Below, one piece after another: positions 363 to 27,435 of a stretch of 64,000 nt of DNA. Origin of the DNA: Candidatus Sungbacteria bacterium RIFCSPLOWO2_01_FULL_47_32. GTDB taxonomy: Bacteria > Patescibacteriota > Minisyncoccia > Sungbacterales > GWA2-42-14. A program made the position numbers and the translations under genes. Within the stretch, counting starts at the first letter, position 1. Each line of letters begins with the position of its first letter. The notes beneath the pieces were generated by a model. That model saw nothing but the letters and a program-made list of their open reading frames with translations, was not told the DNA's origin and did no database searches. Where the stretch lies: assembly GCA_001820685.1 (NCBI GenBank), contig MHQP01000033.1, forward strand, positions 42 to 64,041, in the 5' to 3' direction.

Positions 363-1484
363 CTATTCTCCTTTTTTAGCATTTTTAAGAAGTTCCTCCA
401 ATACTTCCATATGTCTTTCAATTGAAAATTCACCGGTTCTTATTTTTGCCGCCACGCCATATTGATGACTAAGATTAGCATCAAACATAAGCAGGAACAT
501 CTTTTCGCGCAAATCGGGAACGTTTTTCGGCTCGACAAGTAGTCCGCTCTTTTTATCTTCTATCAGCTCCCGAGCTCCGGAAACGCGGCTTGAGATACAG
601 GGTTTCCCCGCAGCCATCGCCTCAACGAGAACGACTGGAAGCCCCTCCCATAGAGAAGGTAAAACGAATATATCAGCAACTGCCATAATATCAGGAGCAG
701 GCCAGACGCCGGGCAGAAGCACTGTGCCGCGCATCTCAAGCCTTTTAATCTCCGCCTCAAGCATGGAGCGAAGCGAACCGTCCCCAAAAATAACCACTTT
801 GAATTTCGCATCGGGTTTAAGTTTCCGCAATTCCTCGGCGGCCTGTATCAAATATATGTGCCCTTTTTGCTCAATAAGGCGCCCAGCTGTCGCAAATACG
901 ACCTCGCCATTGGAAATGCCAAGTTTATACTTCAGCTCGCTTTTGTTTTGTGGGAGATTTTCAAAATCTTGAAAGGGCGTTGTATTATAGTTAACGATAA
1001 ATTTTTCGCGAGGTATATGCTCTTGTCTCGAGGTAAACTCAAGAACGTCTTTTGAGACAGCAATAATTTTTGTCGTGCCATAAGAAAGAATTTTGTCGAT
1101 CAGCATCTGCCACCGTTTTTTATCACGATACATATTCTGCTCATGCGATATGATAACAGGCACTCCGGCGCATAGCGCAAGAACCCTCATGACTGTATTT
1201 GTAAAAAAAAGTGTTGTAACTACTGCATCAAATTTCTCTTGCTTGAGAAAACGGAACACCTTGAGCATTTCAGAAGCGTCCCAAAGGCCGCGCATAGCAA
1301 ATCTCACATAGTGCCTTCCAAGAAATGAAACATCTTTCGAAAAACTATTTTCCGACTCCGGAAGAAGTATCGCAAGCCACGGTTCAAAGGCATCCCTATT
1401 AATCCGCGAAATTTGATGCACGGCCATGCGTTCCGCTCCCCCGATGGATAAATTATTTACGGCAAAAAGTATTTTTGCTTTCAT
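363..1484 (-). CDS. Glycosyltransferase family 4 (GT-B fold)
   Basis: N-terminus KILFAVNNLSIGGAERM and the C-terminal E-X7-E region EGLPVVLVEAMAAGKPCISS are typical of Glycos_transf_1/GT4. Confidence 0.85.
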   Translation of the reverse strand: MKAKILFAVNNLSIGGAERMAVHQISRINRDAFEPWLAILLPESENSFSKDVSFLGRHYVRFAMRGLWDASEMLKVFRFLKQEKFDAVVTTLFFTNTVMRVLALCAGVPVIISHEQNMYRDKKRWQMLIDKILSYGTTKIIAVSKDVLEFTSRQEHIPREKFIVNYNTTPFQDFENLPQNKSELKYKLGISNGEVVFATAGRLIEQKGHIYLIQAAEELRKLKPDAKFKVVIFGDGSLRSMLEAEIKRLEMRGTVLLPGVWPAPDIMAVADIFVLPSLWEGLPVVLVEAMAAGKPCISSRVSGARELIEDKKSGLLVEPKNVPDLREKMFLLMFDANLSHQYGVAAKIRTGEFSIERHMEVLEELLKNAKKGE

Positions 1485-1513
1485 AAATGAGAATCTACAA
1501 ATAATTTCGAATG

Positions 1514-2458: not shown

Positions 2459-4129
2459 TTAGAGCACTTCGTAAATTTCAACAAATGGTCCACTTTTATC
2501 GAGCTTCCATAAAACAGTCCACTGGGTCGGGTTATTCAGATAATCATCGATTCCGCCGCCGCGCAGAGCCTCGTCATGCGTCGGATAGAAACTTTGAACA
2601 AGTTTTATACGATGAAATTTTTCAACCCCCGCACGAATTGTGTCCCCCTTTTCTTTCTTCCAGTATGCGATAAGAATATATTTCGTATTGCTCCCACCAA
2701 GTTCCTCGTATCTGTAATTATAGAAGTCGTAAAAAAGATTCATTCCCGTTCCGTCAAATACATCTTTTTTTGTGACAATGTAATTTATTTTCGCCGACTC
2801 ATTTTGCTTGTTCACTTCTTTGTGATACCGAGCGGCCTCGTAAGAAAGCGGAGCATCGAAACGGTGTTCAAATGAATACACAACTTCTTTCCCGTGAAGA
2901 TTATCGGAAAGCCATTGCTTTGTTTCAAGAAACGTGTTCGCGCGAAGGAGACTAACCCACTTCATGCTTGTGGAAAGACTTGGGATAAGCAGAAGTCCTA
3001 TAAATATTCCGAGGGCAGTCCGCTTACAATTTTTACCCGTAAGCCGATCAACCGCATATGCTATTCCGAATGTCGCCGCAAGTGTTAAAAACGGCAAAAG
3101 CCAGCGGGTCATGCGCGGAGCACTGATGATGCTCACCATGATCAGGTAATTAAACGCAAGCGCGCCGAATACATACCTATGCAGTTTGTCCCTAACGAGC
3201 GATGAAGCAAAAAGGGCAACTGCAAGCCAAAAAACGGCCATTAAAACCGGTTCAATAAAAAAGGTATCGCGAAAAACAAAATAGAAACGTTCAAACTTGC
3301 CTACCGGGTAAAAGCTGACATAATTATTTGCCGCATAGTATCCATAGAGGTTTTCGAGCACCATTCTCCTTACGCCGTTAAAATTCATTAAGTAAAAAAA
3401 CGAAACCGGAAGCGCATAAAGAAGCGTTGCCCGGAGAATCTCTTTTTTGCGAAAGAGTTCTTTATTGAACATGACCCCAAAAACAGGAATGATAAAGGCG
3501 GAAATCCCTACATAATGCACCGATAGCGCGAGGGTAGCGGCAAAAACCGACAGATAGAAAAAGCGAAAGTCTTTTTTGCGTTCAAAAATAAGAATAAAAA
3601 ATAAGGACAGCAAATAGAAAGTGATCATTCCGCTATGCGCTTTGCCCCAATGGGACAAGAAAACAGGAAGCACGCTCACCGCATATGCAGCGGCAGCGGC
3701 GTATGCGCTTGCGGTTTGAGCAAACAGCAAGCGGTATATTTTGTAAATAAGATATACACCGAGCATACCGAATGCGACCGAGAACCAACGCGTAACAATA
3801 ATGAGCTCTCCCATCCCGGATAGAATATAATGCGTTTTTATTGCCTCCGCACTCAAAAGATTTTGGGTGAGTGCTGTATACCCGACCTTGAGCACAACCG
3901 CCGGTATATAAAAGAGTGTCAATAAAATCGGGTGCTGGAGGACATCCGTAGCAAGACTCTTAGCATCGGCAACTTTTAGAATGTAAGAAATGTGGTAATG
4001 CTCATCCCAGATAAAATTTACGCCTGGATAATCAAAGTAAATTCCGTATATGCGCAGCGCGAGTCCGGCAATAAGAATTGCCAGGAGAATCGCGTGTTCT
4101 TTCGCCAGTTGTGATATCCAGTTAGTCAT
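2459..4129 (-). CDS. GT-C fold integral-membrane glycosyltransferase (ArnT/PMT-like), paralog A
   Basis: About 12 predicted TM helices, the loop motif WGKAHSGMITFY, and a ~120-aa soluble C-terminal domain ending SGPFVEIYEVL. It is clearly homologous to 4122..5837 and 16974..18737. Confidence 0.6.
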   Translation of the reverse strand: MTNWISQLAKEHAILLAILIAGLALRIYGIYFDYPGVNFIWDEHYHISYILKVADAKSLATDVLQHPILLTLFYIPAVVLKVGYTALTQNLLSAEAIKTHYILSGMGELIIVTRWFSVAFGMLGVYLIYKIYRLLFAQTASAYAAAAAYAVSVLPVFLSHWGKAHSGMITFYLLSLFFILIFERKKDFRFFYLSVFAATLALSVHYVGISAFIIPVFGVMFNKELFRKKEILRATLLYALPVSFFYLMNFNGVRRMVLENLYGYYAANNYVSFYPVGKFERFYFVFRDTFFIEPVLMAVFWLAVALFASSLVRDKLHRYVFGALAFNYLIMVSIISAPRMTRWLLPFLTLAATFGIAYAVDRLTGKNCKRTALGIFIGLLLIPSLSTSMKWVSLLRANTFLETKQWLSDNLHGKEVVYSFEHRFDAPLSYEAARYHKEVNKQNESAKINYIVTKKDVFDGTGMNLFYDFYNYRYEELGGSNTKYILIAYWKKEKGDTIRAGVEKFHRIKLVQSFYPTHDEALRGGGIDDYLNNPTQWTVLWKLDKSGPFVEIYEVL

Positions 4130-5837
4130 ATGCTAACTGCTGGATTGAACTTTTATCATACGAAATAACTCTGTAAATTTCGACGAACGGACCGGTCCCC
4201 CGCAATTGCATAAGTACCCTCCAATTCAGCGGATTATTCACATATCCTTCTTCAATCTCGCCCAAAGGCAGATCTTTGCGGTCAGTAGGGTAAAATTTTT
4301 GGACCAATTCCAAGGTATGCTCCTTCTTTATTTTTTCAACCTTAGTGACTCCATCATCGCTGTTCCAATACGTCACAACCGCATACTTCGTTGCCGGACC
4401 GGCAAGCTCTTTATGCCGAAGCGCACGATCATAGAAAATATTTATTCCGCTATTTTGAAATTGCTCCTTGTGGCTGATGATGTAGTTAATCTTGCCGGAG
4501 GCCGTAACACCGTTCATATCCCGCTGCCAAAGAGCCGCGTCATAAGAAAGAGGAACATCAATAAGGTTATTGGTAGAATATATAACATCGCCCTTGGCCG
4601 GAACCGTGAGCAGCCACTCTCGCGCCGCAACCATGGTATCGTTATGTATAAGAATCAGCCATTTCGCCGTAAAAATAAGGCTCGGGATAAGAAACAGGGT
4701 TCCGATGGCGCATAAGGCAAATTTTCCGAATCCTTTCTTGAGCAGCCACTCCATAGCTATGGCTGCGGCAAGCGTTGAGGAAAAAAGGATAAAAGGCGTC
4801 TCATATCGCGACATGTATTTTGATGCAACAACCAGTGTCAAAAATAGGTAATTACACGCAAGAAATACGGCAATATACCGCACAAACCTGTCTTTAAAAA
4901 ACTTTTTGATATTAAACACGAGTAATCCCAGAAAAAGACCGACAAACGCCGGCTCTAGGTTGAACGACTCTCTGATCACGTAGTAAAATCTTTCCCACCG
5001 GCCGATAGGATAAATGCTCGTATAGTTATTTGAACCATAATAACTGGTAGGCGAAATAAGAGTTATATAGAGAGAATAGAATACTCCGCGGTAATTTACG
5101 AGGTAAAAAAAAGCAACAATGGCCCCATAGGCCAGTGCCGCTTTGAAGACGGTCCGAAACTTAATGCTCTCCCTGTTCCACACATAACCCCACAAGGGAA
5201 TGAAAAAAGCATTTACTCCGAGATAATGGGCGGAGAACGATAGTGCCGCAGTAATCACTGAACACCAAAACCATAAAAGCTTTTTTTCTTCCTCAAACCG
5301 CAAAATGCAATAGAGAGATAAAACAAGAAAAAATATCAAACCGCTATGCGCCTTTCCCCAATGGGACACAAGAACCGGCATAAGGCTTACCGCGCACACC
5401 AAAGCCGCATACAGCGCCGGCGGCTCCTGTTTAAAAACTATTCGATATATTTTGTAAATAAGAAAAATCGTAGCTGTTCCAAAGAACACGGCATACCATC
5501 GGGCAACCACCACCAAATCTCCCATGCCATTCACGATAAAATACGCTTTTAGCGTATCAATGCCGTATAACCCCCTCACAACGGCAATATATGCAATCTT
5601 TATAAGAACTCCCGGAATATACAAAAAAGAAAGCAGTGCGGGGTATTGCAATACGTTATTGAATACATCGCCCTGCAAAACCCTCAAGAGATACGACATG
5701 TTCCACGTCTCCGCCGTCACAATCTCTACCGCCGGATAGTCAAAATAAATGCCGTAGACGCGAAGAAAGAAACCAAAAACAATAATGGAAACAAGAATGT
5801 AGTGTTCCCGCACCTTCTGTATGAGCGATAAAATCAT
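4122..5837 (-). CDS. GT-C fold integral-membrane glycosyltransferase (ArnT/PMT-like), paralog B
   Basis: Carries WGKAHSGLIFF. Its C-terminal domain KINYIISHKEQF...NNPLNWRVLMQLRGTGPFVEIYRV aligns with paralog A. A start at MILSLIQ (5837) gives the classic 4-nt ATGA overlap with the upstream methyltransferase; the track ORF extends to 5918. Confidence 0.6.
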   Translation of the reverse strand: MILSLIQKVREHYILVSIIVFGFFLRVYGIYFDYPAVEIVTAETWNMSYLLRVLQGDVFNNVLQYPALLSFLYIPGVLIKIAYIAVVRGLYGIDTLKAYFIVNGMGDLVVVARWYAVFFGTATIFLIYKIYRIVFKQEPPALYAALVCAVSLMPVLVSHWGKAHSGLIFFLVLSLYCILRFEEEKKLLWFWCSVITAALSFSAHYLGVNAFFIPLWGYVWNRESIKFRTVFKAALAYGAIVAFFYLVNYRGVFYSLYITLISPTSYYGSNNYTSIYPIGRWERFYYVIRESFNLEPAFVGLFLGLLVFNIKKFFKDRFVRYIAVFLACNYLFLTLVVASKYMSRYETPFILFSSTLAAAIAMEWLLKKGFGKFALCAIGTLFLIPSLIFTAKWLILIHNDTMVAAREWLLTVPAKGDVIYSTNNLIDVPLSYDAALWQRDMNGVTASGKINYIISHKEQFQNSGINIFYDRALRHKELAGPATKYAVVTYWNSDDGVTKVEKIKKEHTLELVQKFYPTDRKDLPLGEIEEGYVNNPLNWRVLMQLRGTGPFVEIYRVISYDKSSIQQLAYD

Positions 5838-6568
5838 TTTTGAGCTGTTATCAATAGTGAGCCGGAAATTTCTTTTAAGAGCGGAACAATCTCTGGCACA
5901 AGAAGCGGAGCAGAACAAAAACGCACGATACTGTCGGGGAGCGCCGGATGCAGGAAGTCGAAATTATCGACACTGACGTTCCTATACCCGACTTCTTCGA
6001 GTGAGCGCGCGAGCCCACAACGGAAAAAAGCTGTTTCGTCGGGAGAGTCTCCCATTGCCTTCTTCAGCCATGGAATATTCTTTTGCAAAAATATCTGCGG
6101 GTTTGCCATATTCGGCTCACTAAAAAGAAGAAGACCGCCATGCGCAAGCTTCCGGTAACACGATTCAAGTGTTTTTTTATGATCAGTGTGATGCAACACA
6201 GAAACTCCGACAATATGCGTAAAGGTTCCGTCAGAAAAATTGTCAAGTTCTTCGGCATCCGCTGTTCTTACTTCAACATTCCGATATTTTTCGACTTTCT
6301 TTTTTGCGACCTTAATTAAGTCCGGCGATATGTCTATCGCCGTTATTGATGCCCCGGTTTGCGCAAGTTTCGCGGTAAACTCCCCCGTTCCGCACCCAAG
6401 CTCAAGCACCCGGCTTCCGGACCAGATGAGACCGTTCTCTATCATAAGATTTATCCGCCTCTCCGTCCGAATCCTCCCAGCCTCGCCGCTTCTTCCCCAC
6501 ACACCTTCCGCGTAATCGGCAATTTTTTTTCCGTGCGTTATTTCATTTATTTTTCGCTGGTCATTCAT
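5834..6568 (-). CDS. Class I SAM-dependent methyltransferase
   Basis: Motif I is VLELGCGTGEFTAKLA, followed by ITAIDISPDLIKVA and LAHGGLLLFSEP. Confidence 0.8.
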   Translation of the reverse strand: MNDQRKINEITHGKKIADYAEGVWGRSGEAGRIRTERRINLMIENGLIWSGSRVLELGCGTGEFTAKLAQTGASITAIDISPDLIKVAKKKVEKYRNVEVRTADAEELDNFSDGTFTHIVGVSVLHHTDHKKTLESCYRKLAHGGLLLFSEPNMANPQIFLQKNIPWLKKAMGDSPDETAFFRCGLARSLEEVGYRNVSVDNFDFLHPALPDSIVRFCSAPLLVPEIVPLLKEISGSLLITAQK

Positions 6569-6573: not shown

Positions 6574-7635
6574 TTACACAAGCCTGCTTGCTTCCGCATC
6601 TATCATCTCTTCCATAATATTGTCAAGTTTTTTGGTAATACCCCAGTCCGGATAATCGGTTTTAAGTTTTTTTAAATTTGAAATATAACAGATGTGGTCT
6701 CCTTCGCGATTCTTTTCGTCGTAAACGGAATTTACCGTCTTGCCGGTTATAGATTTTATTTTATCAAAAGTTTCAAGAATAGACATGCTGTTCCCCCTTC
6801 CTCCGCCTAAATTATACACGACTCCTTGTTTCGGATTAGCGATGAATTCTTCGAAGGCCCGAACGACGTCGTATGAATGTATCTGGTCGCGGACTTGTTT
6901 TCCTTTGTAACCGAAGATCGTATACATTCCTCCGCTCACCGCAACCTTAATAAGGTATGACAAAAACCCGTGAAGTTCCACACCGCTATGTTGGGGGCCG
7001 GTAAGACATCCTCCGCGGAAGGAGACGGTATTCATCCCAAAATATTTTCCGTATTCCTGGACCATGACATCCGCGGCAACTTTTGAAGCGCCGAAGATGC
7101 TGTGCTTGGAGCCGTCGATGCTTTGTGTTTCATCGATGCCGTCAAAGTGTTCCGGTTTTGAATATTCCCAGCGCGTTGCCTTCTCTTCTAGAGGCAGATA
7201 ATTTGGGCTATCGCCATACACCTTATTGGTGCTCATGAAAACAAACGGGGCTTCAGGAGAATATGTGCGCGTAGCCTCAAGTAAAATGTGCGTTCCAACC
7301 GCGTTCACTTCAAAATCCAAAAGCGGGTCTTTTTTTGCCCAATCGTGGGATGGCTGGGCCGCGCAATGAATGATGGCTTCGGGCGGGTTCTCTTTGAGGA
7401 GCGAAAATATTTTCATGCGGTCGCGGATGTCGATATCATGATGGACAAAATTCGGAATGCCGTCCTTGAGCCGTTTCAGATTCCACGATGTATCCCCTTT
7501 GTCGCCAAAAAAGAACTTCCGCATATTATTATCAATGCCGTGAATCTCGTACCCTTTATTACCGAAATACAAAGAAGCCTCGGAACCGATAAGGCCCTGG
7601 GATCCCGTAATAAGCATTACTTTTTTCTTTGCCAT
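6574..7635 (-). CDS. NAD-dependent epimerase/dehydratase (extended SDR), CDP-paratose 2-epimerase-like
   Basis: Rossmann motif LITGSQGLIGSE, catalytic region STNKVYGD ... YGASKVAAD (YxxxK), and GYKGKQVRD resembling CDP-paratose 2-epimerase. The start is probably MAKKKV at 7635. Confidence 0.75.
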   Translation of the reverse strand: MAKKKVMLITGSQGLIGSEASLYFGNKGYEIHGIDNNMRKFFFGDKGDTSWNLKRLKDGIPNFVHHDIDIRDRMKIFSLLKENPPEAIIHCAAQPSHDWAKKDPLLDFEVNAVGTHILLEATRTYSPEAPFVFMSTNKVYGDSPNYLPLEEKATRWEYSKPEHFDGIDETQSIDGSKHSIFGASKVAADVMVQEYGKYFGMNTVSFRGGCLTGPQHSGVELHGFLSYLIKVAVSGGMYTIFGYKGKQVRDQIHSYDVVRAFEEFIANPKQGVVYNLGGGRGNSMSILETFDKIKSITGKTVNSVYDEKNREGDHICYISNLKKLKTDYPDWGITKKLDNIMEEMIDAEASRLV

Positions 7636-7749
7636 TGCTTCGCGAATACGCGCAAATGTAGGTACGAATTTCACAAATATTTTTAGCCATTCATGAAATA
7701 AGCGGCTATATTCGAGTAAATTGGTAATACCTATAAAACGAGATAAACG

Positions 7750-10251: not shown

Positions 10252-10429
10252 TGTATCTATGTATTTAACATTGTGCGCAAAGCAGGCGTAGTTCAGAAGC
10301 CACACAGTGCCGAGCGCGTTCGTGCCCGACCGCTAAGAAGTATTATAGGAGGACATGCCATTTTGTTTGACAGCACAATTACCTTATATACTGTACCAAA
10401 AAACCGAATTTAGTCAAAAAACTCCTGCA

Positions 10430-14218: not shown

Positions 14219-14219
14219 A

Positions 14220-18756: not shown

Positions 18757-19014
18757 TCAGCCGACAACATTAAAAAATCGAAGCATCAAAAAACGCATGA
18801 TGAAAAGTCCACCAATGATGGTAATGCTGCTGATGATCGTGGAAATATGAAATATATCAATAAAAAGCCACAGTAAACAAATTTGTACAAGCGCTAACAC
18901 GCCGCCCGTCCAAAGATAGTGGAAAAAGGACCAGCTCAAAAAAGGTTTTAACATACCGGCACATATAGATGACTTGTCGGAAGGATTTTTTTGTTCAGGC
19001 AACATATATTTCAA
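18757..19014 (-). CDS. Small two-TM membrane protein, GtrA-like (candidate polyprenol-P-sugar flippase subunit)
   Basis: FFHYLWTGGVLALVQICLLWLFIDIF resembles the GtrA FxxVGxxxxxxxxxL helix. It is shorter than canonical GtrA proteins. Confidence 0.35.
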   Translation of the reverse strand: MKYMLPEQKNPSDKSSICAGMLKPFLSWSFFHYLWTGGVLALVQICLLWLFIDIFHISTIISSITIIGGLFIMRFLMLRFFNVVG

Positions 19015-19026: not shown

Positions 19027-20658
19027 TTACCAATATAGTTCCTGCACGGTTGTCGTTGTGTCTCCGGTAACAGAAAAAACGGGTTCACGAAAATTACTGC
19101 GCTCGCCTCCCACCTCCTGGTTTAAAAAATACTTCGAACTGGGAATAAAATTATACGACGATTTTCTGCCATAGTATATGTCTTCCTTATGTAGTGCCGC
19201 ACCAACCACATCGACAATACGCACACCGTTATCTGTAAGAACAAACGAGCGTTTGAAAGAAATGGATGACCGCCGGGCATCTGTAATCATCCCCTTGCGC
19301 AGTACTTTTTTTAAAAATTTTCGCAGTATACCGGATTGCCCGATGGTCAACTGAAACATCTTAAATAAAAGCATTATTGGCGTTTTCATCAAAGGTTCCG
19401 AAACGAACTTTAAAAAGCCGCTTGTAGAAAATTCTTTCGCTACCGCAGAAACACAGTGAATACCATTATTTTTATCAAGAACATTAGATGTATACGCGTG
19501 CCCCCGAGAAATGATATCTGCGCCTGAATCAAGGTATGTCTTTCCTGGTGCGTACACTCGAAACGCTCCGCCCTTATAAAGATTCGCTACAAAATAATAT
19601 ATCCCGCGGTCTACAACACGAATACCGGACATCGGAAAAAAAGTATCAACACGGCGCTCCGCAAGAAATCGACGAATCCGCCCGCCGTCACTGGGAACAT
19701 ATATAAGCCCCGCCTGTAACCAGTTATACAGGATATAGGCAAGGTAGCGGTCATCAAGGTTAGACGGTCCGATGCCGGACTGAAGAGCAAGTGAGTGAGC
19801 GCAAAATTCCGCAATAAGACGCATATTTTGGTCTTTATCGGAAAGCAGCACAAATCCGGAAGGTATGAGATACTCGGTATTGCGCGAGCCATACTCGCCG
19901 CCAACAGTATAATTGGGATGTAAAAAATTGGTTAAAAACGCCGATGATTTGCGAATTGCTTCAACAACTCTCTGATCATCATATTTTTGAGAGTATTTAG
20001 CGAGATAATCAATAGTGAGCGAAAGGTACCCAATATCGGGGCCGCCATATTCGCTCCACCACCCTTCCGACACCTGGGCATCCGTAAAACGCTTAGCTTT
20101 TTCAAAGGCGCTCATTCGATATCGTTCATCCCGGGTAAGCAGCCATACATTCACAAGAGCGAGCATACTTCCTGACTCCTGATTACGAACCAGTTCCTCG
20201 TCTAAGGAAGTCAGCCAGTCAGCAGCACGACACAATACATCAACTGCTTTTTTGTATCCTCGAATCTTTTGTTCTCCTAATACCAAAAGCGTCTCGGAAA
20301 GCGCCGCGGTCACAAAGGCAGTCGCCACAAAAGAACTTTCGTGGAGATACCACTCACTAAACGACCCGTCACGATCCTGCAGGGACAGAGAAAAACCAAT
20401 GGCAGCGTTTATCCATTCCAACACGCGCGAGTCCTGATAATATATATTTTCTTCAAAATCATTCGCATAAAGAAGTGCTAGGGTCAGTACTGCCTCCTGA
20501 TAGCGGGCGCAGCTTATATCAGCCGTACGATAATGCCAAAAGGCGCGATCGAACGATCCGTATGAATGGGAAGCCGGATTGCGGTTGAGAAGACCCAGAA
20601 GGCGCGGAACTTCGGCAAGGGCCGACTGCAAAAAAATATTTGAAGCTATTTTTGACAT
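19027..20658 (-). CDS. Hypothetical 543-aa protein, possibly an alpha/alpha-toroid plus beta-sandwich polysaccharide-modifying enzyme (heparinase II/III-like)
   Basis: The N-terminal ~300 aa are helix-rich with W/Y-rich repeats (SFSEWYLHESSF, EGWWSEYGGPDIGY), and the C-terminal ~200 aa are beta-rich. No confident family assignment. Confidence 0.45.
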   Translation of the reverse strand: MSKIASNIFLQSALAEVPRLLGLLNRNPASHSYGSFDRAFWHYRTADISCARYQEAVLTLALLYANDFEENIYYQDSRVLEWINAAIGFSLSLQDRDGSFSEWYLHESSFVATAFVTAALSETLLVLGEQKIRGYKKAVDVLCRAADWLTSLDEELVRNQESGSMLALVNVWLLTRDERYRMSAFEKAKRFTDAQVSEGWWSEYGGPDIGYLSLTIDYLAKYSQKYDDQRVVEAIRKSSAFLTNFLHPNYTVGGEYGSRNTEYLIPSGFVLLSDKDQNMRLIAEFCAHSLALQSGIGPSNLDDRYLAYILYNWLQAGLIYVPSDGGRIRRFLAERRVDTFFPMSGIRVVDRGIYYFVANLYKGGAFRVYAPGKTYLDSGADIISRGHAYTSNVLDKNNGIHCVSAVAKEFSTSGFLKFVSEPLMKTPIMLLFKMFQLTIGQSGILRKFLKKVLRKGMITDARRSSISFKRSFVLTDNGVRIVDVVGAALHKEDIYYGRKSSYNFIPSSKYFLNQEVGGERSNFREPVFSVTGDTTTTVQELYW

Positions 20659-22013
20659 CGAATGACAACAACAGAGCCAGCGCGGCCTACGCGCATGAAG
20701 CCCTGAAATGAAAAAAGGGCGGAAAGTAGCCGGCTTACGACGGTTAAACGAGTTTCCCGGTGCAGATAACTTGACCCTTCACTTTTACGATATTGAAGAA
20801 ACATTTGATACACTTGTTCATAAAACGGCGGTACCGGAAAATAGCCGGTCCAATCAATGCTGGTAAATCCTGCACGCCGAAGAAGGGTCAACGTATGCGA
20901 GACCCGAATCGGCTGATAAGGCCCAAAAAAGGCATACATACCGGTTTTGCGGACATCATTGCCGAACAGAATTTTCACAATAAAAAAGAATAGATTTAGA
21001 AAAGGATTCGATTTTCTGGAAAAAATGATAAATTCGCCACCCTGCTCAAGCGTCGCATACGCCTTTGAGAACATCTCGCTACGAAGCGGGGCAGGAAGTC
21101 GTTCCAGTTTATAAATCATGGTAATTGTTTGCACCGGCTGAGACGCAAGCGTCGAAGCCTGTTCATCATAAACGCTGAAGATATGCTGCCGTATCTTTTG
21201 CGGCACCTGTTGCTCCGCCGCCGCTTTGGTATACAGCGACGTTTCAGATAATAAATCAACCATCTGTACCGGCACATTTGGAAACTCACTCACATAGCTA
21301 CCGTCGTACGAACAGAGATCAAGAATAGAAGTTTTGACCGCGGCAAGAGTGTTTCGCACAAGCGCCCGTTCGTCGCGGCTCATGATATCCATCTCCTTGC
21401 CCAATGTCGTTTTTCGACAATAGTACCGCTGATGCATCCTTAATGTCTCAAGGGTCCAATCGTCTGGACCATAGGTAAATGGCGGACGCTTCCGCGTACC
21501 AAATACACCCCAATGCACCACCTCTTCAACCGGCCGTCTTGAAACAGGCTGCATTGCTTGAGCCCGCCCGTCTGGATATCCAAGAAGTACAAAACAGCAA
21601 ATCGTTTCACTTGCGGGAACTTGAAGCACCTTTTTTATCTGCGTATCAGCGCCGTAGCTGTTCATTGGCAAAGCGCCAAGACCAAAGTTCTCGGCCGCAA
21701 GCAGAATATGTCCGACAGCAAGCGCCCCTCCCTGAATAGCTTCCTTATAATTCCACCCGTCATACGTTACCACAATAATGGCGGGCGCCCGGCGGAGGTT
21801 TGTATTCGACGCCGCCTCTTTCACTAACCGTTCTTTAGTTTCATTATCAGTCACAACAATAAAATTCCACGCCTGTTGGTTGCAGTTCGTAGGCGCATAT
21901 GTTGCAAGTTCTAAAATTTTTTTAATAACTTCGGAATCAACGGGTCGCGCCTGAAAACTCCGTATACTTTTACGCCCTTTCAGAACATCAAGAAATGCTT
22001 TTGGGTCCGCCAT
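20646..22013 (-). CDS. Nitroreductase domain fused to a class-I methyltransferase-like domain
   Basis: N-terminal KSIRSFQARPVDSEVIKKILELATYAPTNCNQQAWNFIVV is the classic nitroreductase pattern. The C-terminal part has SILDLCSYDGSYV and LEQGGEFIIFS, which are methyltransferase-like motifs. Confidence 0.65.
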   Translation of the reverse strand: MADPKAFLDVLKGRKSIRSFQARPVDSEVIKKILELATYAPTNCNQQAWNFIVVTDNETKERLVKEAASNTNLRRAPAIIVVTYDGWNYKEAIQGGALAVGHILLAAENFGLGALPMNSYGADTQIKKVLQVPASETICCFVLLGYPDGRAQAMQPVSRRPVEEVVHWGVFGTRKRPPFTYGPDDWTLETLRMHQRYYCRKTTLGKEMDIMSRDERALVRNTLAAVKTSILDLCSYDGSYVSEFPNVPVQMVDLLSETSLYTKAAAEQQVPQKIRQHIFSVYDEQASTLASQPVQTITMIYKLERLPAPLRSEMFSKAYATLEQGGEFIIFSRKSNPFLNLFFFIVKILFGNDVRKTGMYAFFGPYQPIRVSHTLTLLRRAGFTSIDWTGYFPVPPFYEQVYQMFLQYRKSEGSSYLHRETRLTVVSRLLSALFSFQGFMRVGRAGSVVVIRCQK

Positions 22014-22015: not shown

Positions 22016-22945
22016 TTATAGGTTGGAGACACGCTCCCTAATTATGTAATTCCTCCGCTCATTACCATTTTTACGTACCACAAGATCTCCGATGAGCCCT
22101 AAAGAAAAAAACTGTATCCCGACAAAAACCAAAAGAACCCCGAGCGATAAAAGCGGGCGTGAGCCGATCGCAATGTGATACGCAAGCTTAACCCATGTCA
22201 GATAAAACAAAATAACAAACCCGGCAAAAAACGAGGTAAGTCCAAGGGGCCCGAAAAAGTGAAGAGGCCTGTCAATATATTTTCTAAGGAACATGACGGT
22301 AAGAAAATCGAAAAAACCGCTGAATACTCTGAAAAAACCGTATTTTGAATTCCCATGAAGACGCCTCCTGTGATTCACCGGAGTTTCGGCAACACGGAAA
22401 CCGTCGTATGCGGCGAGTGCGGGAATATAGCGGTGGAGATCCCCGTGAAGCTTGAGATTCTTTGCAAACTCCTTCGTGTACCCTTTGAATCCGCAATTCA
22501 TATCGTGAATTTCAACACCGGTGAAAAAGCGCGTAACGCCGTTTGCTATTTTGGAAAGAAAAATTTTCGACGGATCATCAAGCCGATTCACTTTCCATCC
22601 GCACACAAGGTCGGCCCCGGCATTCATGCTTTCCAAAAAACGCGGAATTTCCTTCGGATCATCCTGCAAATCGCCGTCAAGCGTAATGATGCGTTCTCCC
22701 CCCGCCTCTTCAAATCCTGCCATAAGCGCCTGGGACTTTCCAAAATTTCGTAAGAATGAAATTACCTTAACGCTTTTTAACTTTTTAAGTTCAGTGAACG
22801 TTCCGTCTTTTGAACCGTCATCAACGAAGATGATCTCAAATTCCTGATGCATATTTTTAAGAACACCTAAAAGCTCCCGGTGGAGTTCGGAAACGTTTTT
22901 TTCTTCATTATAGACCGGAATGACAACAGATATCATAGAAGCCAC
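22016..22945 (-). CDS. GT2 polyprenol-phosphate glycosyltransferase (GtrB/ArnC-like, with two C-terminal TM helices)
   Basis: ISVVIPVYNEEKNV...IIFVDDGSKDGT...ITLDGDLQDDP, plus C-terminal TM segments LGLTSFFAGFVILFYL and LLSLGVLLVFVGIQFFSLGLIG. Confidence 0.85.
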   Translation of the reverse strand: MASMISVVIPVYNEEKNVSELHRELLGVLKNMHQEFEIIFVDDGSKDGTFTELKKLKSVKVISFLRNFGKSQALMAGFEEAGGERIITLDGDLQDDPKEIPRFLESMNAGADLVCGWKVNRLDDPSKIFLSKIANGVTRFFTGVEIHDMNCGFKGYTKEFAKNLKLHGDLHRYIPALAAYDGFRVAETPVNHRRRLHGNSKYGFFRVFSGFFDFLTVMFLRKYIDRPLHFFGPLGLTSFFAGFVILFYLTWVKLAYHIAIGSRPLLSLGVLLVFVGIQFFSLGLIGDLVVRKNGNERRNYIIRERVSNL

Positions 22946-22967: not shown

Positions 22968-24167
22968 TCAATTCCGCGGTGCGCTCCCGCACGTCACAAG
23001 ACTCTGCCGAAACGACTCAAGATATTCGCTCTTTGAAGAGGCGAGAAGCGTTTTTGAAAGCTCTTTCGTGCGAAGGCGCATGAGATTGTAATTTTCAAAC
23101 TCGTAAAAAACTTTTATAAGAATATCGGCAAGATTGCGGGAATTTCCGACCGGAAAAATTCTTCCTGTCTCGTTGATGCGAATTGCTTCCCGCGCAATAC
23201 CCACATCCGCCGAAAAAACCGGAAGCCCGGAAGCGAGGGCCTCGAGAATAGTTCTTCCATACCCCTCATAGTTCGACGTAACAAGGAACATATCCGCGGT
23301 TTTGTAGTACGAAAGAAGAGTTTCGTAGGGCACCGCGTCCTCAAAAATAACCATCGGCCCGTCAAAAGGTTTTTCTTCGGTAGCATCGTCAAAGGAAACC
23401 GGCCTTTGAGGAGTTGTGCCGTAAAGATCTTTAAGCCTGTTTTTTTCAGGCCCATCGCCGACGACAAGCAGAAGAGTCCTAGGGAATTTTTTTATAACCT
23501 CGCGCATCGCAAGACACGCCATGTCGATGTTTTTTTCGGTTGTAACGCGGGACGCCATCAGAATGATGAAGTCATACGACGGATATTTGTCGTGCACTTT
23601 TGTACTTGGTACAGCGTTCCGAATTGCCTCGCCATCGACGAATATCGGAAGAACGGAAATGCGCCATTCATGGATGCGGAATTTTCCTTCAAGAGATGCT
23701 TTCAGGCGCTCGCTCACGACACGAACGCAATCGGCATGGCGCGCCGACCAGCGATACAGGCGGTAGCGCATGGAGTTTTTGAACGATTCTTTTTTGAAAT
23801 TCGGACTCAAAAAATCCGTATGTATCTGAACCTGGAGCGAAATTCCGGTAAACGCCCTTAACAAAAAACCGGCAATGTTCGTCATTGCATCCTGCGAGGT
23901 TATAACGGCGTCGTTTTTTTTATAGCCTCCCTCTTTTAGTATGCGTCTTCCGAGAGAAAAAGCTTTAAAAAAATATGAAAATTTTAATCCGGTGTTCGTC
24001 GGATATATCCGAACGTTTTGAGCAAGTTCTTCCTCGGCATACCCCGGGTGCGTGTAGACGATGACGCGAAGGTCGTCAAAAAGCGTTCCGTATTCCTTCA
24101 TGCGCTCCCGCACTTCCGACCCCTCTTCGAATATCAGAGGGTCAATGCTTAACATCAAAACTTTCAT
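22968..24167 (-). CDS. Glycosyltransferase family 4
   Basis: FLVTSNYEGYGRTILEALASGLPVFSADVGIAREAI is the E-X7-E core. Confidence 0.8.
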   Translation of the reverse strand: MKVLMLSIDPLIFEEGSEVRERMKEYGTLFDDLRVIVYTHPGYAEEELAQNVRIYPTNTGLKFSYFFKAFSLGRRILKEGGYKKNDAVITSQDAMTNIAGFLLRAFTGISLQVQIHTDFLSPNFKKESFKNSMRYRLYRWSARHADCVRVVSERLKASLEGKFRIHEWRISVLPIFVDGEAIRNAVPSTKVHDKYPSYDFIILMASRVTTEKNIDMACLAMREVIKKFPRTLLLVVGDGPEKNRLKDLYGTTPQRPVSFDDATEEKPFDGPMVIFEDAVPYETLLSYYKTADMFLVTSNYEGYGRTILEALASGLPVFSADVGIAREAIRINETGRIFPVGNSRNLADILIKVFYEFENYNLMRLRTKELSKTLLASSKSEYLESFRQSLVTCGSAPRN

Positions 24168-24299: not shown

Positions 24300-25043
24300 T
24301 TACTGCTGATGTTGTTCTCCCTCGGAAAAATGCTTGATTGCCTTGTTCCACCGCTCGAAGGTTCCGCAATCAAAAAAGAATCCCTCTCCCTTGAAACCGG
24401 TAAGAAGCCCGCGAGACGCAAGGTGCGGAAAAAGGTCGCGCTCTATCATAAGGAATTTTTCCTGCGTCGGAACATGCAGGAGTGCTTCCGGTGAAACAAC
24501 ATACAATCCGGACGATACAAATGACGTAGGAGGATCTTTTGGCTTCTCGAGAAACATTGCGATCTTTGGCCCCTTCATTACGGCAACCCCGTAGTCAGAC
24601 GGATTTTCTACGGATACAAGGGCCACAGTCGCAAGCCCTCCGTTCGTTTTATGGAATTCAAAAAGTTTTTTCAAGTCAACCCGTTTCACTTCATCGGCAT
24701 TCGTAACAAATACCGGCTCTTTGCCAATCCATTCTTTCAGGTTATGGAAAACGTAGCCGAGAGTTCCCATCGGTTCCGGCTCGATGTCAAAAGAAATTGA
24801 AATATTCCCAAGCCCCGCCTCAAAACGCTTCCGCCACCACGAAAAGTCCTCGTAGTCGGCTTCCCTGATGACTACTTTAATATCGGTAACGCCGTGCTCC
24901 CGGAAAAGCTCAATGAGATAATTCAAAATCGGCTTTTTCTTCACGCTCAAAAGAGGCTTTGGCGTTTCAAGCGTTACCGGATACAGCCGGGTTCCTTTCC
25001 CGCCTGCAATTATGATAGCTTTTTTAGGGGTTTTTGCTCCCAT
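24300..25043 (-). CDS. Sugar-phosphate nucleotidyltransferase (NDP-sugar pyrophosphorylase)
   Basis: KAIIIAGGKGTRLYPVTLETPKPLL is the NTP_transferase G-x-G-T-R motif. Confidence 0.75.
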   Translation of the reverse strand: MGAKTPKKAIIIAGGKGTRLYPVTLETPKPLLSVKKKPILNYLIELFREHGVTDIKVVIREADYEDFSWWRKRFEAGLGNISISFDIEPEPMGTLGYVFHNLKEWIGKEPVFVTNADEVKRVDLKKLFEFHKTNGGLATVALVSVENPSDYGVAVMKGPKIAMFLEKPKDPPTSFVSSGLYVVSPEALLHVPTQEKFLMIERDLFPHLASRGLLTGFKGEGFFFDCGTFERWNKAIKHFSEGEQHQQ

Positions 25044-27435
25044 GTTTCTTTGCCGAATAATTCTCAAAAAGGCCGATAAGTCCTTTCATCATGCGCTCTT
25101 TTGAGAACTCACGGGCGCGCTCTTTTCCATGCTCCCTTAGCTTTTTATATACTCCTGCGTCCGAAAAAATCAACCGCACCGCGTCCCGTATCGCCCGCGA
25201 ATCGTTGAAGGGCACAAGGATGCCGTTCTCCATGTCCGTAATGATCTCCGGGTTCCCGCCGACATCCGTCGTGATAACGGGAATTCCCGCGCTTTGCGCC
25301 TCGATTATCTGGTGCGAAAATCCTTCATAGCTCGTATTCAAAATAAAAACATCGGAAGCTTTCAGATATTTCATAATATCGGCCTTCGAACGCTTCCCGA
25401 TTATTGTTACGGCATTCTCCGCTTCCCGCTCTATGATGGCGCGCTGGAGGCGGAAGTAGTCGGGGCCGTCGCCGACGATAATAACATGCGCCCAGTTGTA
25501 TGTTTTTGTAAGGTCGGAAGCAAGATAAATGAGCGTTTCAAACCCCTTCCACAAAACGAGTCTTCCAATGGAAAGAATTATCTTTTCTTCCTCCGGGATG
25601 CCGAGCTCACGCCGTATCTCTTCTTTTGACTCGGGTATGTCAACCGGTTCAACCGCGTTAAAAATGACGGAAATATTTTCATCCGGAATACGCCACCCGG
25701 AAACGATGCGCTTCAAATACTGCGACGGAACAAGAACGCGGTCCGCGTTTCCGCACACGTGTGCCTCAACAAAGCGGAGTAGCTCGACCAAAAACCGGTA
25801 GTGGCGTATCTGGAACACGTCAATCGCGTCTTCAACGCCGAAACGCGTAACCCCCTGTTCCCACGCATAGTCTCCCGTTACTTTGACGATATATTTTTTC
25901 CTTAGGATACGCGCGGCGCACAGCGCGGGGAATCCCGCCGAAACAGGGTCCTGGGCAAAAAAGATATCGCAGTGCAGTCCCGCCGTGACACACTTCAGAA
26001 AATAAAGAAAATGACGGATGCCTTTCGGAATTTTCCGTGAAATGAAATATGTCCGGTATCGGATTTTGCGGATACCGCCGTCTTTTGCGTCGCCCCAAAG
26101 TACCTCCGCATCGCGATAGGAAATAAGGCGCACAAAGAAACGCCGCCGCTCAAGTTCTCCTGCCACAAGCCGTGAGTACGTCGCGGGGCCTCCGATATCA
26201 GGCGGAAATATGCCGGTTACGACAAGGACGCGCGGCTTTGCGCTTTTCTCAAGTTCCGCTGAAAATATTTTCAAAAGACTCTTTGAAATGGCTTCCCAGT
26301 CATAGCGCGCCGTTGCCAGTTTCTTTGCTTCGTTCACGAGGAGAGTTTTCAGAGATTCATCCGTAAAGACTTTCAGTATCTTTTGAGCGAGGTCTTCGGG
26401 ATCGTCAACGCTCGTAAAAAGACCTGTTACTCCGTCCTTTAGAAAATCGGGAATGCCGCCGACAGGAGTCCCGATAATGGGAACACCAGCCGCCATTGCC
26501 TCAATAAAAGAATTTCCGAGGCCCTCCGAGCGCGAAGGCCGCACAAAGACATTCGCTATTTTAAGATAGTCCGGCAAATGTTCGTGCGAAACGGAGCCGG
26601 CAAATATGACATCATCAAGCACTCCGAGAGCCTTGGCAAGGCTTTTTATTGCCTGTGCTTCCTGGCCGGAACCAAGCACCAAAAATTTCAGGTTAAGCTC
26701 CGGGTTTGCTTTTTTTATCAGAGCAAGAGCCGCAACGATGGTGTCAATTCCGTTCTTTAACACAAGGCGCGAAGCGGTAATAATAATCTTCTCAAAACCC
26801 CTAAGTCCGAGCCTCCGCAAAATCTCTTCGGAGCGTTCTGCCGACGTCGAACGCGCAAAGTTTTTAAGGTCTACTCCGTTCGGAACAACCTCCCCCGGCC
26901 CTTTATAGTTTAAACGATACGCAAGGTCCAAAAGATACGCCGAAATGGCAGTCACATAGTCGCATTGTTTTAAGGCATATCTGAAACCGAGGATATGAAC
27001 AAGTCCGAGACGAGATTTTCGAAGATGCTCTTCGGTATCCCCCTCCTGAAGGGTCAGAATGTATGGGACGCGCGGAAAGAAAAACTTCAACGTGCTTGCC
27101 GCGATGGAACCGTAGGACGCCATGACCACCCAGAATATCTTCTTTCGGCCTTTGAAGCGGCGCCATAAAAAAAGAACGGCAAAAAAAGCCGTGAACGGAA
27201 GGAGGAACTTATCCCATGCTTTCCCGAGCCCGAGGCGCATGATGGTAATATTTTCCTTCGTTTCTTTTTTTGGAAGTTCGGGCGCGAAACGGCTTGTCAG
27301 GACAACAAAATCAAACTCTCCGCCAAGGCGTTTTGCGTTTTCGTGAATTGCAATTTCGGCTCCCCCAATGAACGGATCGTAAGCCGTTGTGAACACGAAA
27401 ATAACCGATTTTCCTGTAGTATTTTCCAAAGCCAA
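25024..27435 (-). CDS. Tandem double glycosyltransferase (GT4-GT4 fusion, 803 aa)
   Basis: Two complete GT4 units. The first ends RPSRSEGLGNSFIEAMAAGVPIIGTPVGGIPD and the second ends NTSYEGFSHQIIEAQSAGIPVITTDVGGNPE. Each is preceded by its own GT4 N-domain (IGGAEIAIHE and DIGGPATYSRL). Confidence 0.8.
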   Translation of the reverse strand: MALENTTGKSVIFVFTTAYDPFIGGAEIAIHENAKRLGGEFDFVVLTSRFAPELPKKETKENITIMRLGLGKAWDKFLLPFTAFFAVLFLWRRFKGRKKIFWVVMASYGSIAASTLKFFFPRVPYILTLQEGDTEEHLRKSRLGLVHILGFRYALKQCDYVTAISAYLLDLAYRLNYKGPGEVVPNGVDLKNFARSTSAERSEEILRRLGLRGFEKIIITASRLVLKNGIDTIVAALALIKKANPELNLKFLVLGSGQEAQAIKSLAKALGVLDDVIFAGSVSHEHLPDYLKIANVFVRPSRSEGLGNSFIEAMAAGVPIIGTPVGGIPDFLKDGVTGLFTSVDDPEDLAQKILKVFTDESLKTLLVNEAKKLATARYDWEAISKSLLKIFSAELEKSAKPRVLVVTGIFPPDIGGPATYSRLVAGELERRRFFVRLISYRDAEVLWGDAKDGGIRKIRYRTYFISRKIPKGIRHFLYFLKCVTAGLHCDIFFAQDPVSAGFPALCAARILRKKYIVKVTGDYAWEQGVTRFGVEDAIDVFQIRHYRFLVELLRFVEAHVCGNADRVLVPSQYLKRIVSGWRIPDENISVIFNAVEPVDIPESKEEIRRELGIPEEEKIILSIGRLVLWKGFETLIYLASDLTKTYNWAHVIIVGDGPDYFRLQRAIIEREAENAVTIIGKRSKADIMKYLKASDVFILNTSYEGFSHQIIEAQSAGIPVITTDVGGNPEIITDMENGILVPFNDSRAIRDAVRLIFSDAGVYKKLREHGKERAREFSKERMMKGLIGLFENYSAKKHGSKNP

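Follow-up and report, generated by a model that had tools for sequence, protein, structure and literature searches.

A 64,000-nucleotide stretch of DNA from Candidatus Sungbacteria bacterium RIFCSPLOWO2_01_FULL_47_32, an uncultured groundwater member of the Parcubacteria known from aquifer metagenomes (GenBank assembly GCA_001820685.1, contig MHQP01000033.1, positions 42 to 64,041; in the following, the window) contains an island of glycan genes at 363-27435. Our preferred explanation, to which we assign a probability of roughly 0.55, is that the island constitutes a conserved Parcubacteria/Sungbacteria locus which makes and decorates a cell-envelope glycoconjugate via multi-component transmembrane glycosylation modules, positioned beside cytoplasmic glycan-assembly genes. 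The domain identities, the fold, the gene order and the conservation are what the analysis shows. Cells of the Candidate Phyla Radiation (CPR) live attached to hosts, and surface glycans likely matter for attachment and for phage recognition. For the CPR envelope, both its structure and the way in which it forms are described as still unclear in the genome paper on a related Parcubacterium (PMC5220378). The island provides a concrete and conserved parts list for one CPR surface glycan with three donor/transferase modules. Systems of this kind are known; the island is a large and conserved instance from a lineage with an uncharacterised envelope. The part which departs from described systems is an accessory trio of genes, discussed below.

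Reading from 27435 down to 363, 21 glycan-related genes follow each other on the minus strand, as seen in the map of open reading frames (ORFs) combined with Pfam searches. Every minus-strand ORF of this interval which has a Pfam match falls into a glycan-related family. The sole ORF without a usable match is 19027-20658, encoding a protein of 543 aa. The initial annotation had noticed a glycan run of about 27 kb on one strand; this holds, with the reservation that two plus-strand ORFs (12603-13784 and 13936-14181) interrupt the run. The inventory comprises three family 2 glycosyltransferases (GT2s) of the DPM1/GtrB/ArnC type, four GT-C membrane transferases, five GT4 domains, four methyltransferase domains, two short-chain dehydrogenases/reductases (SDRs), a sugar-1-phosphate nucleotidyltransferase, an Amidohydro_2 protein and a nitroreductase fusion. 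By Pfam, the methyltransferases (counted as domains), the SDRs, the nucleotide-sugar pyrophosphorylase, the amidohydrolase and the nitroreductase fusion are as originally listed, while the five GT4 enzymes turn out to be five domains in four proteins, one of them double. In the remaining 36 kb of the window about two of about 30 scanned ORFs are glycan-related, i.e., the GT-C enzyme GTC5 (35478-37016) and GalU (47572-48444), which passes its own NCBIfam cut-off. Against this background 21 same-strand glycan genes are far beyond chance. The GC content of the window is even (0.40-0.52) and thus gives no sign of a foreign island.

The island starts with a double GT4, the nucleotidyltransferase, GT4c, a GT2 of 309 aa (GT2_309), the nitroreductase fusion (455 aa), the 543 aa protein and a protein of 85 aa. 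It continues with GTC4 (587 aa), a GT2 of 231 aa (GT2_231), the methyltransferase MT4, GTC3 (454 aa), the two plus-strand ORFs, GT4b and the Amidohydro_2 gene, and it ends with SDR2, a methyltransferase-GT2 fusion (MT::GT2), SDR1, MT2, GTC2, GTC1, MT1 and GT4a. Genes GT4c through MT4 form sub-operon A with gaps of -13 to 22 nt; GTC3 comes 117 nt after it. Genes SDR2 through MT1 form sub-operon C with gaps of -35 to 75 nt. Along the runs from GT2 to GT-C genes neighbours are separated by -8 to 117 nt. At least six units result when the run is divided at its gaps of 117-271 nt and at the 1.7 kb insert on the opposite strand. Promoter and terminator scans did not rise above shuffled expectation (27 vs 21.9 and 32 vs 25.9, respectively); the operon limits are therefore taken from spacing only. 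Every GT2 is accompanied by one or more methyltransferases and by one or more GT-Cs. From this adjacency we infer three donor/transferase modules, and the gene spacing suggests that each consists of a lipid-sugar synthase, a methyltransferase and one or two GT-Cs, set beside the cytoplasmic GT4 and sugar-nucleotide genes. A single multi-step system, as proposed earlier, is not supported; the gene spacing and the related loci speak for modules combined into a mosaic.

Predicted lipid-sugar synthases and GT-C transferases

Judged by sequence, the three GT2s belong with the polyprenyl-phosphate sugar synthases, in agreement with the initial annotation. Module A has GT2_309 (22016-22945, minus strand as are all island genes unless stated otherwise) as its predicted polyprenyl-phosphate sugar synthase. 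The whole protein, C-terminal transmembrane (TM) hairpin included, aligns with ArnC of known structure (PDB 9hwj, E 3e-44 over residues 4-293; hydrophobic segments at 231-290). It also matches GtrB (5ekp) and DPMS (5mlz). GT2_231 (16264-16959), the predicted lipid-sugar synthase of module B, is of the soluble DPM1/PpgS type. A hydropathy scan finds no TM segments, and its residues 3-210 match the catalytic domain of DPMS 5mlz with E 7e-18. Its NCBIfam scores for AglJ (109 bits) and the polyprenyl-phospho-GalNAc synthase PpgS (80 bits) are both below cut-offs. The third GT2 resides in the MT::GT2 fusion (7750-9189, 479 aa), in which Pfam places a methyltransferase at about residues 59-190 and a GT2 at 244-380. 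The DPM1/ArnC-like GT2 half (residues 240-479) has PDB matches to Pyrococcus furiosus DPMS and to ArnC with E about 1e-15 (best 6e-16). The best NCBIfam matches of the three GT2s are AglJ, PpgS, ArnC and Dol-P-hexose transferase. All three share VDDGS.D, D-x-D and C-terminal R..(Y/H)G..(S/T/G)K motifs, and the RVYGETK of the fusion aligns with the other two. We take the C-terminal motif to be reminiscent of the RVYGESK signature of DPM1 enzymes, which is a lead, not a test. PDB matches, motifs and the hairpin of GT2_309 together mean that features of polyprenyl-phosphate specificity are not lacking.

Five polytopic proteins had been designated GT-C membrane transferases, the fifth being located outside the island. 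All five score above the PMT_2 gathering threshold of 26.1 bits (34.1, 32.0, 39.6, 31.8 and 85.2 bits for GTC1 through GTC5), and a crude hydropathy scan shows 7-11 TM segments. GTC1 (2459-4129) and GTC2 (4122-5837) are tandem paralogues (41% identity, BLAST E 7e-154). Of two possible starts of GTC2, the ATG at 5837 agrees more closely with the family alignment than does the TTG at 5918. Both are distant kin of GTC4 (E 5e-15 and 5e-7); GTC2 is 23% identical to it (E 5e-15). In GTC4 (16974-18737) a TM domain is followed, at the C-terminus, by a soluble domain of about 160 aa. The GTC4/1/2 family is characterised by this domain, whose last residues are GPYVEIY, and by a Glu that is invariant within a G-D-E-L loop. 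In GTC4 the residue is E49 in the GDELVS loop after TM1, so that loop 1 contains a D-E pair. GTC3 (14220-15584) belongs to a distinct family with an invariant D46 in a VDA motif, likewise in the loop after TM1; orthologues at 43-49% identity are present in three of the related loci (L007, L010 and L011; L numbers denote our loci). The ArnT-like GTC5 (35478-37016, plus strand) aligns with ArnT in the PDB (5ezm, E 2e-21). The families of GTC3 and GTC5 are separate from each other and from GTC4/1/2.

GTC5 matches the PMT profile (PF02366) with 75.6 bits, covering positions 26-234 of the 245 in the profile, and GTC4 does so with 35.4 bits over positions 83-225; GTC1, GTC2 and GTC3 have no match at E<=0.01. 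None of the five GT-Cs matches PMT_4TMC at E<=0.01. Families of the GT87/PimE-Mpt type are absent, Pfam giving only PMT_2 and PMT for the five proteins.

An AlphaFold (AF2) model of GTC4, computed from an 8-sequence alignment, has a pLDDT of 77.5 and a pTM of 0.80. The significant Foldseek matches are GT-C enzymes only, i.e., STT3/AglB/PglB, ALG9/12, ArnT, Pmt4, AftA and Emb, with TM-scores of about 0.42-0.52, AftA and Emb being only weak matches. The idea that the polytopic proteins are O-antigen ligases or transporters was accordingly rejected by Pfam and fold comparison; it is excluded, as far as the predicted model goes, for the GTC4 family, and the profile match makes it unlikely for GTC3.

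The identical 587 aa product of GTC4 occurs in NCBI assemblies GCA_001820565.1 (MHQC01000032.1) and GCA_001822325.1 and in several aquifer metagenomes; its database name is 'Glycosyl transferase family 39 [Parcubacteria group bacterium GW2011_GWA2_47_10]'. With a GTC4-family profile 1094 cluster representatives were retrieved at E<=1e-30 among 1.84 billion, thus the family is common. A genome scan with a 5-sequence alignment of the family returned 4 loci.

Multi-component transmembrane glycosylation begins with a GT-A enzyme that produces a C55-P-sugar, which is moved by a flippase and used by a GT-C for transfer outside (PMC8035078). The features found here are a GT2 which by sequence is of the DPM1/GtrB/ArnC type and, close to it, a polytopic GT-C with an acidic loop residue (E49 or D46). 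The Gtr, CsbB/GtcA/YfhO, GacI/J/K/L and Csd systems (PMC8035078) similarly combine a GT2 synthase with a PMT_2-type GT-C carrying an acidic motif in an outer loop; in the island, too, a small membrane protein lies between GT2 and GT-C. GT2_231 resembles the GacI/PpgS type, which requires a membrane partner. In contrast to these systems, the island has three donor synthases, each of them fused to a methyltransferase or next to one, along with four GT-Cs; a clear GtrA, Wzx or MATE flippase is not present. Further, a nitroreductase::methyltransferase fusion and a protein of epimerase/lyase fold are inserted between GT2 and GT-C, and the host belongs to the CPR.

The Arn pathway is comparable in that GT2_309 can be aligned to ArnC along its entire length, and GTC5 to ArnT. 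The ArnD step edits a lipid-linked sugar, which parallels the role we propose for the accessory pair, and a Woesearchaeota relative of the module has a formyltransferase and a deacetylase. On the other hand, the window lacks ArnA, ArnB, ArnD and ArnE/F, Pfam detects no formyltransferase, aminotransferase or deformylase in it, and NCBIfam equivalog scores are far short of the cut-offs (GT2_309 vs ArnC, 167.6 bits, cut-off 529; GTC5 vs ArnT, 94.2 bits, cut-off 567). The set of ArnC and ArnT equivalogs with ArnA, ArnB and ArnD is thus not present. Lipid A synthesis has not been reported for these organisms (PMC5220378, a related Parcubacterium).

The small membrane protein (18757-19014, 85 aa, 2-3 TM segments) had been called GtrA-like. 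A confident GtrA assignment was rejected. The similarity is a sub-threshold match to half of GtrA (GtrA_DPMS_TM, E 0.0077, 16.9 bits, cut-off 26.1), and there is no similarity to the bona fide GtrA of the related locus L014. The protein is a weakly GtrA-like candidate for a flippase subunit or a GT2 partner. It is 43% identical to the equivalent ORF of L010, and other related loci have LPG_synthase_TM (MprF-flippase-like) or a full GtrA in its place.

Conservation and the accessory trio

Co-occurrence of the gene set in related genomes had been named as a check; the core order reappears in other Sungbacteria, in Harrisonbacteria and in further Patescibacteria. In the Sungbacteria loci L010 and L027 the order double GT4, GT4c, GT2_309, nitroreductase fusion, 543 aa protein, 85 aa protein, GTC4, GT2_231, GTC3, PLP (pyridoxal phosphate) enzyme and GT4b is kept. 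Identities are 50% for GT4c, 66% for GT2_309, 66% for the nitroreductase fusion, 61% for the 543 aa protein, 43% for the 85 aa protein, 44% for GTC4, 43% for GT2_231, 49% for GTC3, 54% for the opposite-strand PLP gene and 49% for GT4b. In the distant Parcubacteria locus L007 an LTD/PKD protein is followed by the double GT4, GT4c, GT2_231, a B12 radical SAM protein, GT2_309, GTC4 and GTC3, and then by a methyltransferase, a GT4, LPG_synthase_TM, GT4b, a methyltransferase, GT4a, an acetyltransferase and an SDR. Harrisonbacteria L011 retains GT2_309, GT4b, GTC4 and GTC3, and the core is rearranged in L007, L011, L012 and L014. Radical SAM enzymes, an acetyltransferase, LPG_synthase_TM and DegT are swapped in and out among relatives. 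From the gene content of L007, L010, L011 and L027 it follows that the core is a lineage-wide locus with variable accessory genes. A literature search on CPR/Parcubacteria found no paper on this locus type.

The accessory trio is formed by an ArnC-like GT2, the nitroreductase fusion and the 543 aa protein. The fusion protein (20646-22013, 455 aa) is cytoplasmic. The flavin mononucleotide-type nitroreductase match spans residues 4-178 only, and a methyltransferase-like domain of about 270 aa is fused C-terminally. This part has a weak Methyltransf_23 match (E 0.01), and its homologues P0373 and P0386 have Methyltransf_25/11 matches. The full-length fusion is found in CPR and in Woesearchaeota/Thorarchaeota. 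The 543 aa protein (19027-20658) is predicted to be a cytoplasmic protein of epimerase/lyase fold. Its model (pLDDT 92.8) shows an alpha/alpha barrel in residues 1-335 followed by a beta-sandwich, and Foldseek ranks PL33 and PL8 lyases and DS-epi1. More than 629 homologues exist, mostly in Patescibacteria, and the residues D37, R38, E55, E102, E107, N159, E203, D208, R259, N260 and D302 are conserved. A secreted lyase was considered and rejected: no signal peptide is detected, and the single hydrophobic segment is an inner helix of the barrel.

A metagenome scan with the 543 aa family yielded 534 relatives, and 80 loci were kept, 40 of which are non-redundant and have enough flanking sequence. 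In 30 of these 40 a full-length ArnC-like GT2 lies within 3 kb of the 543 aa homologue. An adjacent nitroreductase is present in 28, with the C-terminal extension in 15 of the 28; 21 loci have both GT2 and nitroreductase, and three have neither. The trio resides in many otherwise unrelated contexts, usually with LPG_synthase_TM and a GT-C as neighbours. Most genes downstream of it code for membrane proteins. Of ten sampled proteins about 310 aa long, eight are LPG_synthase_TM, and the large ones include PMT_2/PMT proteins, one STT3-like, one Wzy_C-like and one Wzx-like protein, and four without family. Four polytopic proteins immediately downstream of the trio, L030 11551-13296, L033 10408-12174, L035 8084-10153 and L044 11559-13310 (about 580-690 aa, 8-9 predicted TM segments), have no Pfam match at E<=0.01; they may represent an undescribed GT-C-like family.

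Directly after GT2 and 543 aa homologue, locus L016 (a 'bacterium' assembly without Patescibacteria label) encodes at 11592-14468 a 958 aa fusion of LPG_synthase_TM, PMT_2 and polysaccharide deacetylase. Similar proteins of about 950 aa are found in L045, L046, L052 and L054. Going by its domains, such a triple fusion would unite flipping, transfer and de-N-acylation in one chain. In Woesearchaeota L097 an Arn-like set comes after the trio: a formyltransferase, a deacetylase, LPG_synthase_TM, two PMT_2 proteins and an SDR. On a presumably archaeal contig with a Cdc6/Orc-type gene the fusion adjoins a heparinase II/III-fold protein, a UDP-sugar dehydrogenase, LPG_synthase_TM, a GT2 and a PMT_2 protein.

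What might the trio do? By analogy with ArnD, DprE1/DprE2 and the auxiliary epimerases of pentofuranose systems (PMC11127046) we infer that the nitroreductase fusion and the 543 aa protein edit the sugar handled by the ArnC-like GT2. In arabinogalactan synthesis (DprE1/DprE2) and in the pentofuranose systems (PMC11127046) auxiliary redox or epimerase enzymes act on a lipid-linked donor. Yet DprE1 has an FAD/VAO fold and DprE2 is an SDR, whereas the accessory enzymes of the island are a nitroreductase fold and an alpha/alpha barrel, unrelated to either, and the island lacks a PRPP (phosphoribosyl pyrophosphate)-dependent synthase. Epimerisation, or dehydration and ene-reduction of a uronate together with methylation, would fit the predicted folds. 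Tentatively, then, the trio may be an undescribed donor-editing branch of lipid-linked glycosylation in CPR bacteria and DPANN archaea, which remodels a sugar before its transfer to the surface by a GT-C. The flavoenzyme and the barrel protein would act on the polyprenyl-phosphate-bound sugar or just before loading, possibly by epimerisation or by 4,5-dehydration and ene-reduction of a uronate, then methylation, and the product would be a sugar new to these lineages. If the pair indeed edits lipid-linked sugars, it would add a new type of step to three-component glycosylation and link CPR bacteria and DPANN archaea through a shared envelope chemistry. No paper describing the trio was found in a literature search. 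The widespread pair is open to in vitro study without culturing the organism.

Proposed pathway, acceptor and rival explanations

As a pathway, the island could operate as follows. The nucleotidyltransferase and the two SDRs would supply (deoxy or epimerised) NDP-sugars, and the five GT4 domains would build a core glycan or glycolipid in the cytoplasm. The S-adenosylmethionine (SAM)-dependent methyltransferases would O-methylate sugars ahead of export. Each of the three DPM1/ArnC-type GT2s would attach a single sugar, which may already be modified, to polyprenyl phosphate. In module A this sugar or its precursor is probably edited by the nitroreductase::methyltransferase-like fusion and by the protein of epimerase/lyase fold. 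The lipid-linked sugars would be flipped, the candidate for this step being the 85 aa TM protein, and the four GT-Cs would transfer them at the outer face. Adjacency in the sub-operons suggests the pairs GT2_309 with GTC4, GT2_231 with GTC3, and MT::GT2 with GTC2/GTC1.

Synthesis of lipid-linked sugars by the GT2s and outer-face transfer by the GT-Cs, the scheme originally put forward, is the best reading because of the polyprenyl-phosphate type of the GT2s, the identity of the GT-Cs and the tight GT2/GT-C sub-operons. The periplasmic methylation which had been joined to it is rejected. The methyltransferases are soluble, cytoplasmic and require SAM, and one is fused to a GT2; hence methylation must precede flipping. 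Its target must be an NDP-sugar, a lipid-linked sugar or a nascent glycan in the cytoplasm.

Several points weigh against our preferred explanation. No NCBIfam model reaches its cut-off for any protein of the cluster, and consequently neither sugar nor acceptor can be named. PDB sequence and profile searches with GTC4, with the GTC4/1/2 alignment and with the GTC3 alignment gave nothing relevant. The GT2-to-GT-C pairings are likely ones drawn from adjacency, and the assignment of the 85 aa protein as flippase is weak. Module C is not seen in the related loci, whose flanks stop before that region. Finally, the window contains no priming phosphoglycosyltransferase, no Wzx/ABC exporter, no polymerase and no LCP ligase. 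With neither primer, exporter nor ligase found, no complete polymer pathway is visible, which weakens every model of a complete pathway.

Two giant surface proteins had been proposed as the likely substrates. Giant protein 1 (37099-40893, minus strand, 1264 aa) has an N-terminal TM segment, an S/T/P linker, and LTD and beta-helix domains (Pfam Beta_helix, LTD); it is convergent with GTC5. Giant protein 2 (42788-46447, minus strand, 1219 aa) has PG_binding_1 and T/S-rich beta domains. S+T amounts to 19.0% and 22.8%, respectively, against 10.6 +/- 1.8% over 25 other proteins. A classic S/T/P linker (STSTSTTTPP at about residue 479) is present only in giant protein 1; in giant protein 2 the S and T residues are spread along the protein. 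The enrichment is thus real, but the two proteins are located 10-19 kb from the island with about 10 kb of unrelated genes between, and related clusters carry no homologues in their flanks except for an LTD domain in L007. As a separate observation, residues 150-190 or so of giant protein 1, in its N-terminal region, contain a H-x-x-H-L-V-E-D...D-H motif at a place without Pfam match; it is reminiscent of sites of the zinc phospholipase C or S1-P1 nuclease type.

True protein O-mannosyltransferases carry a PMT_4TMC domain, which the five GT-Cs lack. The PMT_2-type GT-Cs characterised in Firmicutes (GtlB, GttB, CsdD/F, GtsC, GacL) act on lipoteichoic acid, wall teichoic acid and wall polysaccharides/secondary cell wall polysaccharides (PMC8035078). 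Because of these uses and of the GT4-rich context a non-protein polymer or lipoglycan is somewhat more likely as acceptor than a protein. Candidates, again somewhat more likely than protein, are a wall polysaccharide, a teichoic-acid-like polymer or a glycolipid-anchored glycan. By analogy to lipomannan and lipoarabinomannan (LM/LAM), the five GT4 domains and the NDP-sugar enzymes point to synthesis of a glycan or glycolipid inside the cell and to its decoration on the outside.

A lipoglycan pathway like that from actinobacterial phosphatidylinositol mannosides (PIM) to LM/LAM takes this analogy literally. GT4s would glycosylate a membrane lipid inside, the product would be flipped, and GT-Cs would extend or branch it using donors made by Ppm1-like GT2s. 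The inventory fits: several GT4s, Ppm1-like GT2s and several GT-Cs, without a phosphoglycosyltransferase or Wzx/Wzy. The cytoplasmic GT4 steps and several GT-Cs fed by lipid-linked monosaccharides are shared with PIM-LM-LAM and arabinogalactan synthesis, and the logic is that of LM/LAM as set out in PMC3485146 and PMC3123699. Moreover, the GT4s have sub-threshold NCBIfam matches to glycolipid synthases (alpha-monoglucosyl-DAG (diacylglycerol) synthase, IagA/BgsA, GlcN-PG synthase), and the nucleotidyltransferase has mannose-1-phosphate guanylyltransferase as its best match. However, all GT4 matches are far below the curated cut-offs, the GT-Cs are PMT_2/PMT proteins and not of the GT87/PimE-MptA, GT53 or GT136 types, and genes for inositol or a lipid anchor are absent. 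We consider this pathway doubtful.

Alternatively, the island might be a mosaic of independent glycan modules, in which separate donor/GT-C pairs serve different acceptors next to an unrelated GT4/methyltransferase set. The latter might, e.g., make a cytoplasmic polymethylated polysaccharide like the mycobacterial methylmannose polysaccharide. The division into units by gaps and insert, the exchange of accessory genes around a retained core, and the trio in its unrelated surroundings all speak for independence. Yet the long gene order is conserved in Sungbacteria, insert included, all modules share one strand and one functional theme, and GT4b and GTC3/GTC4 co-occur in distant Parcubacteria. 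The pathways for methylmannose polysaccharide and for the E. coli O8/O9a polymannan are devoid of outer-face steps, to which the GT-C/GT2 modules of the island point. For the O8/O9a type (WbdA-D), neither an ABC transporter nor a WbdD-type kinase/methyltransferase terminator was detected. Full independence of the modules is possible but rather unlikely.

Protein O-glycosylation of the PMT/Ppm1 (GT39) type by the GT2/GT-C pairs, with the two giant proteins as substrates, survives least well. It shares with the actinobacterial system a GT2-made polyprenyl-P-sugar donor, the D-E pair in loop 1 of GTC4 and S/T-rich secreted proteins nearby, one of which, with its S/T/P linker, directly adjoins GTC5. 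GTC4 and GTC5 have partial PMT matches, and the top Foldseek matches of GTC4 are the protein-modifying STT3/AglB enzymes. In L007 the LTD/PKD surface protein precedes the double GT4, and a 1781 aa Big_5 protein flanks the Woesearchaeota cluster L097. On the other side, for the four in-cluster GT-Cs PMT matches are partial and weak, PMT_4TMC is absent, and the wall-polymer acceptors of characterised PMT_2 enzymes, the intervening genes and the lack of conserved proximity have been outlined above. Multiple GT-Cs, GT4, SDR and methyltransferase genes are foreign to that system; O-mannosylation of the PMT type needs neither five GT4 domains nor NDP-sugar enzymes. This model of protein O-glycosylation is improbable.

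Cytoplasmic enzymes and neighbouring genes

The first gene of the island is the double GT4 (25024-27435), an 803 aa protein with two GT-B modules; Pfam finds Glycos_transf_1 (279 bits in two stretches) and Glyco_transf_4 twice. It is conserved with 39% identity over the full length in L007 and 48% in L027. The nucleotidyltransferase (24300-25067) matches NTP_transferase with E 1e-34; its mannose-1-phosphate guanylyltransferase score is 124 bits, below the cut-off of 440. GT4c (22968-24167, assigned by Pfam) is the first gene of sub-operon A and is separated by 22 nt from the next gene. GT4b (11384-12493, likewise by Pfam) is among the most conserved core genes with 46-52% identity across L007, L010, L011 and L012. 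GT4a (363-1484) is the last gene of the island (Glycos_transf_1, E 8e-36).

Both SDRs are predicted NDP-sugar dehydratases/epimerases of the Pfam Epimerase family. SDR2 (9232-10305, E 9e-46), the first gene of sub-operon C, has NCBIfam matches to LegB, RmlB and TviC, and SDR1 (6574-7674, E 5e-40) to RmlB and GalE, all below cut-offs. The Amidohydro_2 protein (10457-11212, E 1e-19) has no NCBIfam match and no homologue in related loci. Three methyltransferases are separate class I SAM enzymes, i.e., MT4 (15702-16271, Methyltransf_23/11), which overlaps the upstream GT2 by 8 nt, MT2 (5834-6568, Methyltransf_11, E 1e-22), which overlaps GTC2 by 4 nt, and MT1 (1756-2493, Methyltransf_23, E 5e-16). 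The fourth methyltransferase domain is the N-terminal half of the 7750-9189 fusion.

The plus-strand gene 12603-13784, which interrupts the run, encodes a Cys/Met-metabolism PLP enzyme (Pfam E 1e-103). It is probably not part of the glycan machinery, and its position and orientation are kept in L010. A plus-strand gene resembling methylenetetrahydrofolate reductase is located at 31114-32133, 4 kb past the island. Together the two could feed a methionine/SAM cycle serving the methyltransferases of the island. The second plus-strand ORF (13936-14181, 81 aa) matches the fervidolysin N-terminal prodomain with 23.3 bits (cut-off 21); it is annotated as a gene in all six assemblies, and no protease gene adjoins it.

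Scans for tRNA and Rfam families reveal no RNA genes. Directly after GT4a, at 1-290 on the minus strand, follows an ArsR/SmtB-like winged-helix ORF which is truncated by the edge of the window. On the other side of the island, at 28914-30303 (minus strand), two overlapping ORFs encode membrane proteins of 264 and 202 aa. The shorter one shows a weak similarity (E 0.0035) to the second half of the AI-2E transporter profile, and the two may be one frameshifted or split transporter gene.

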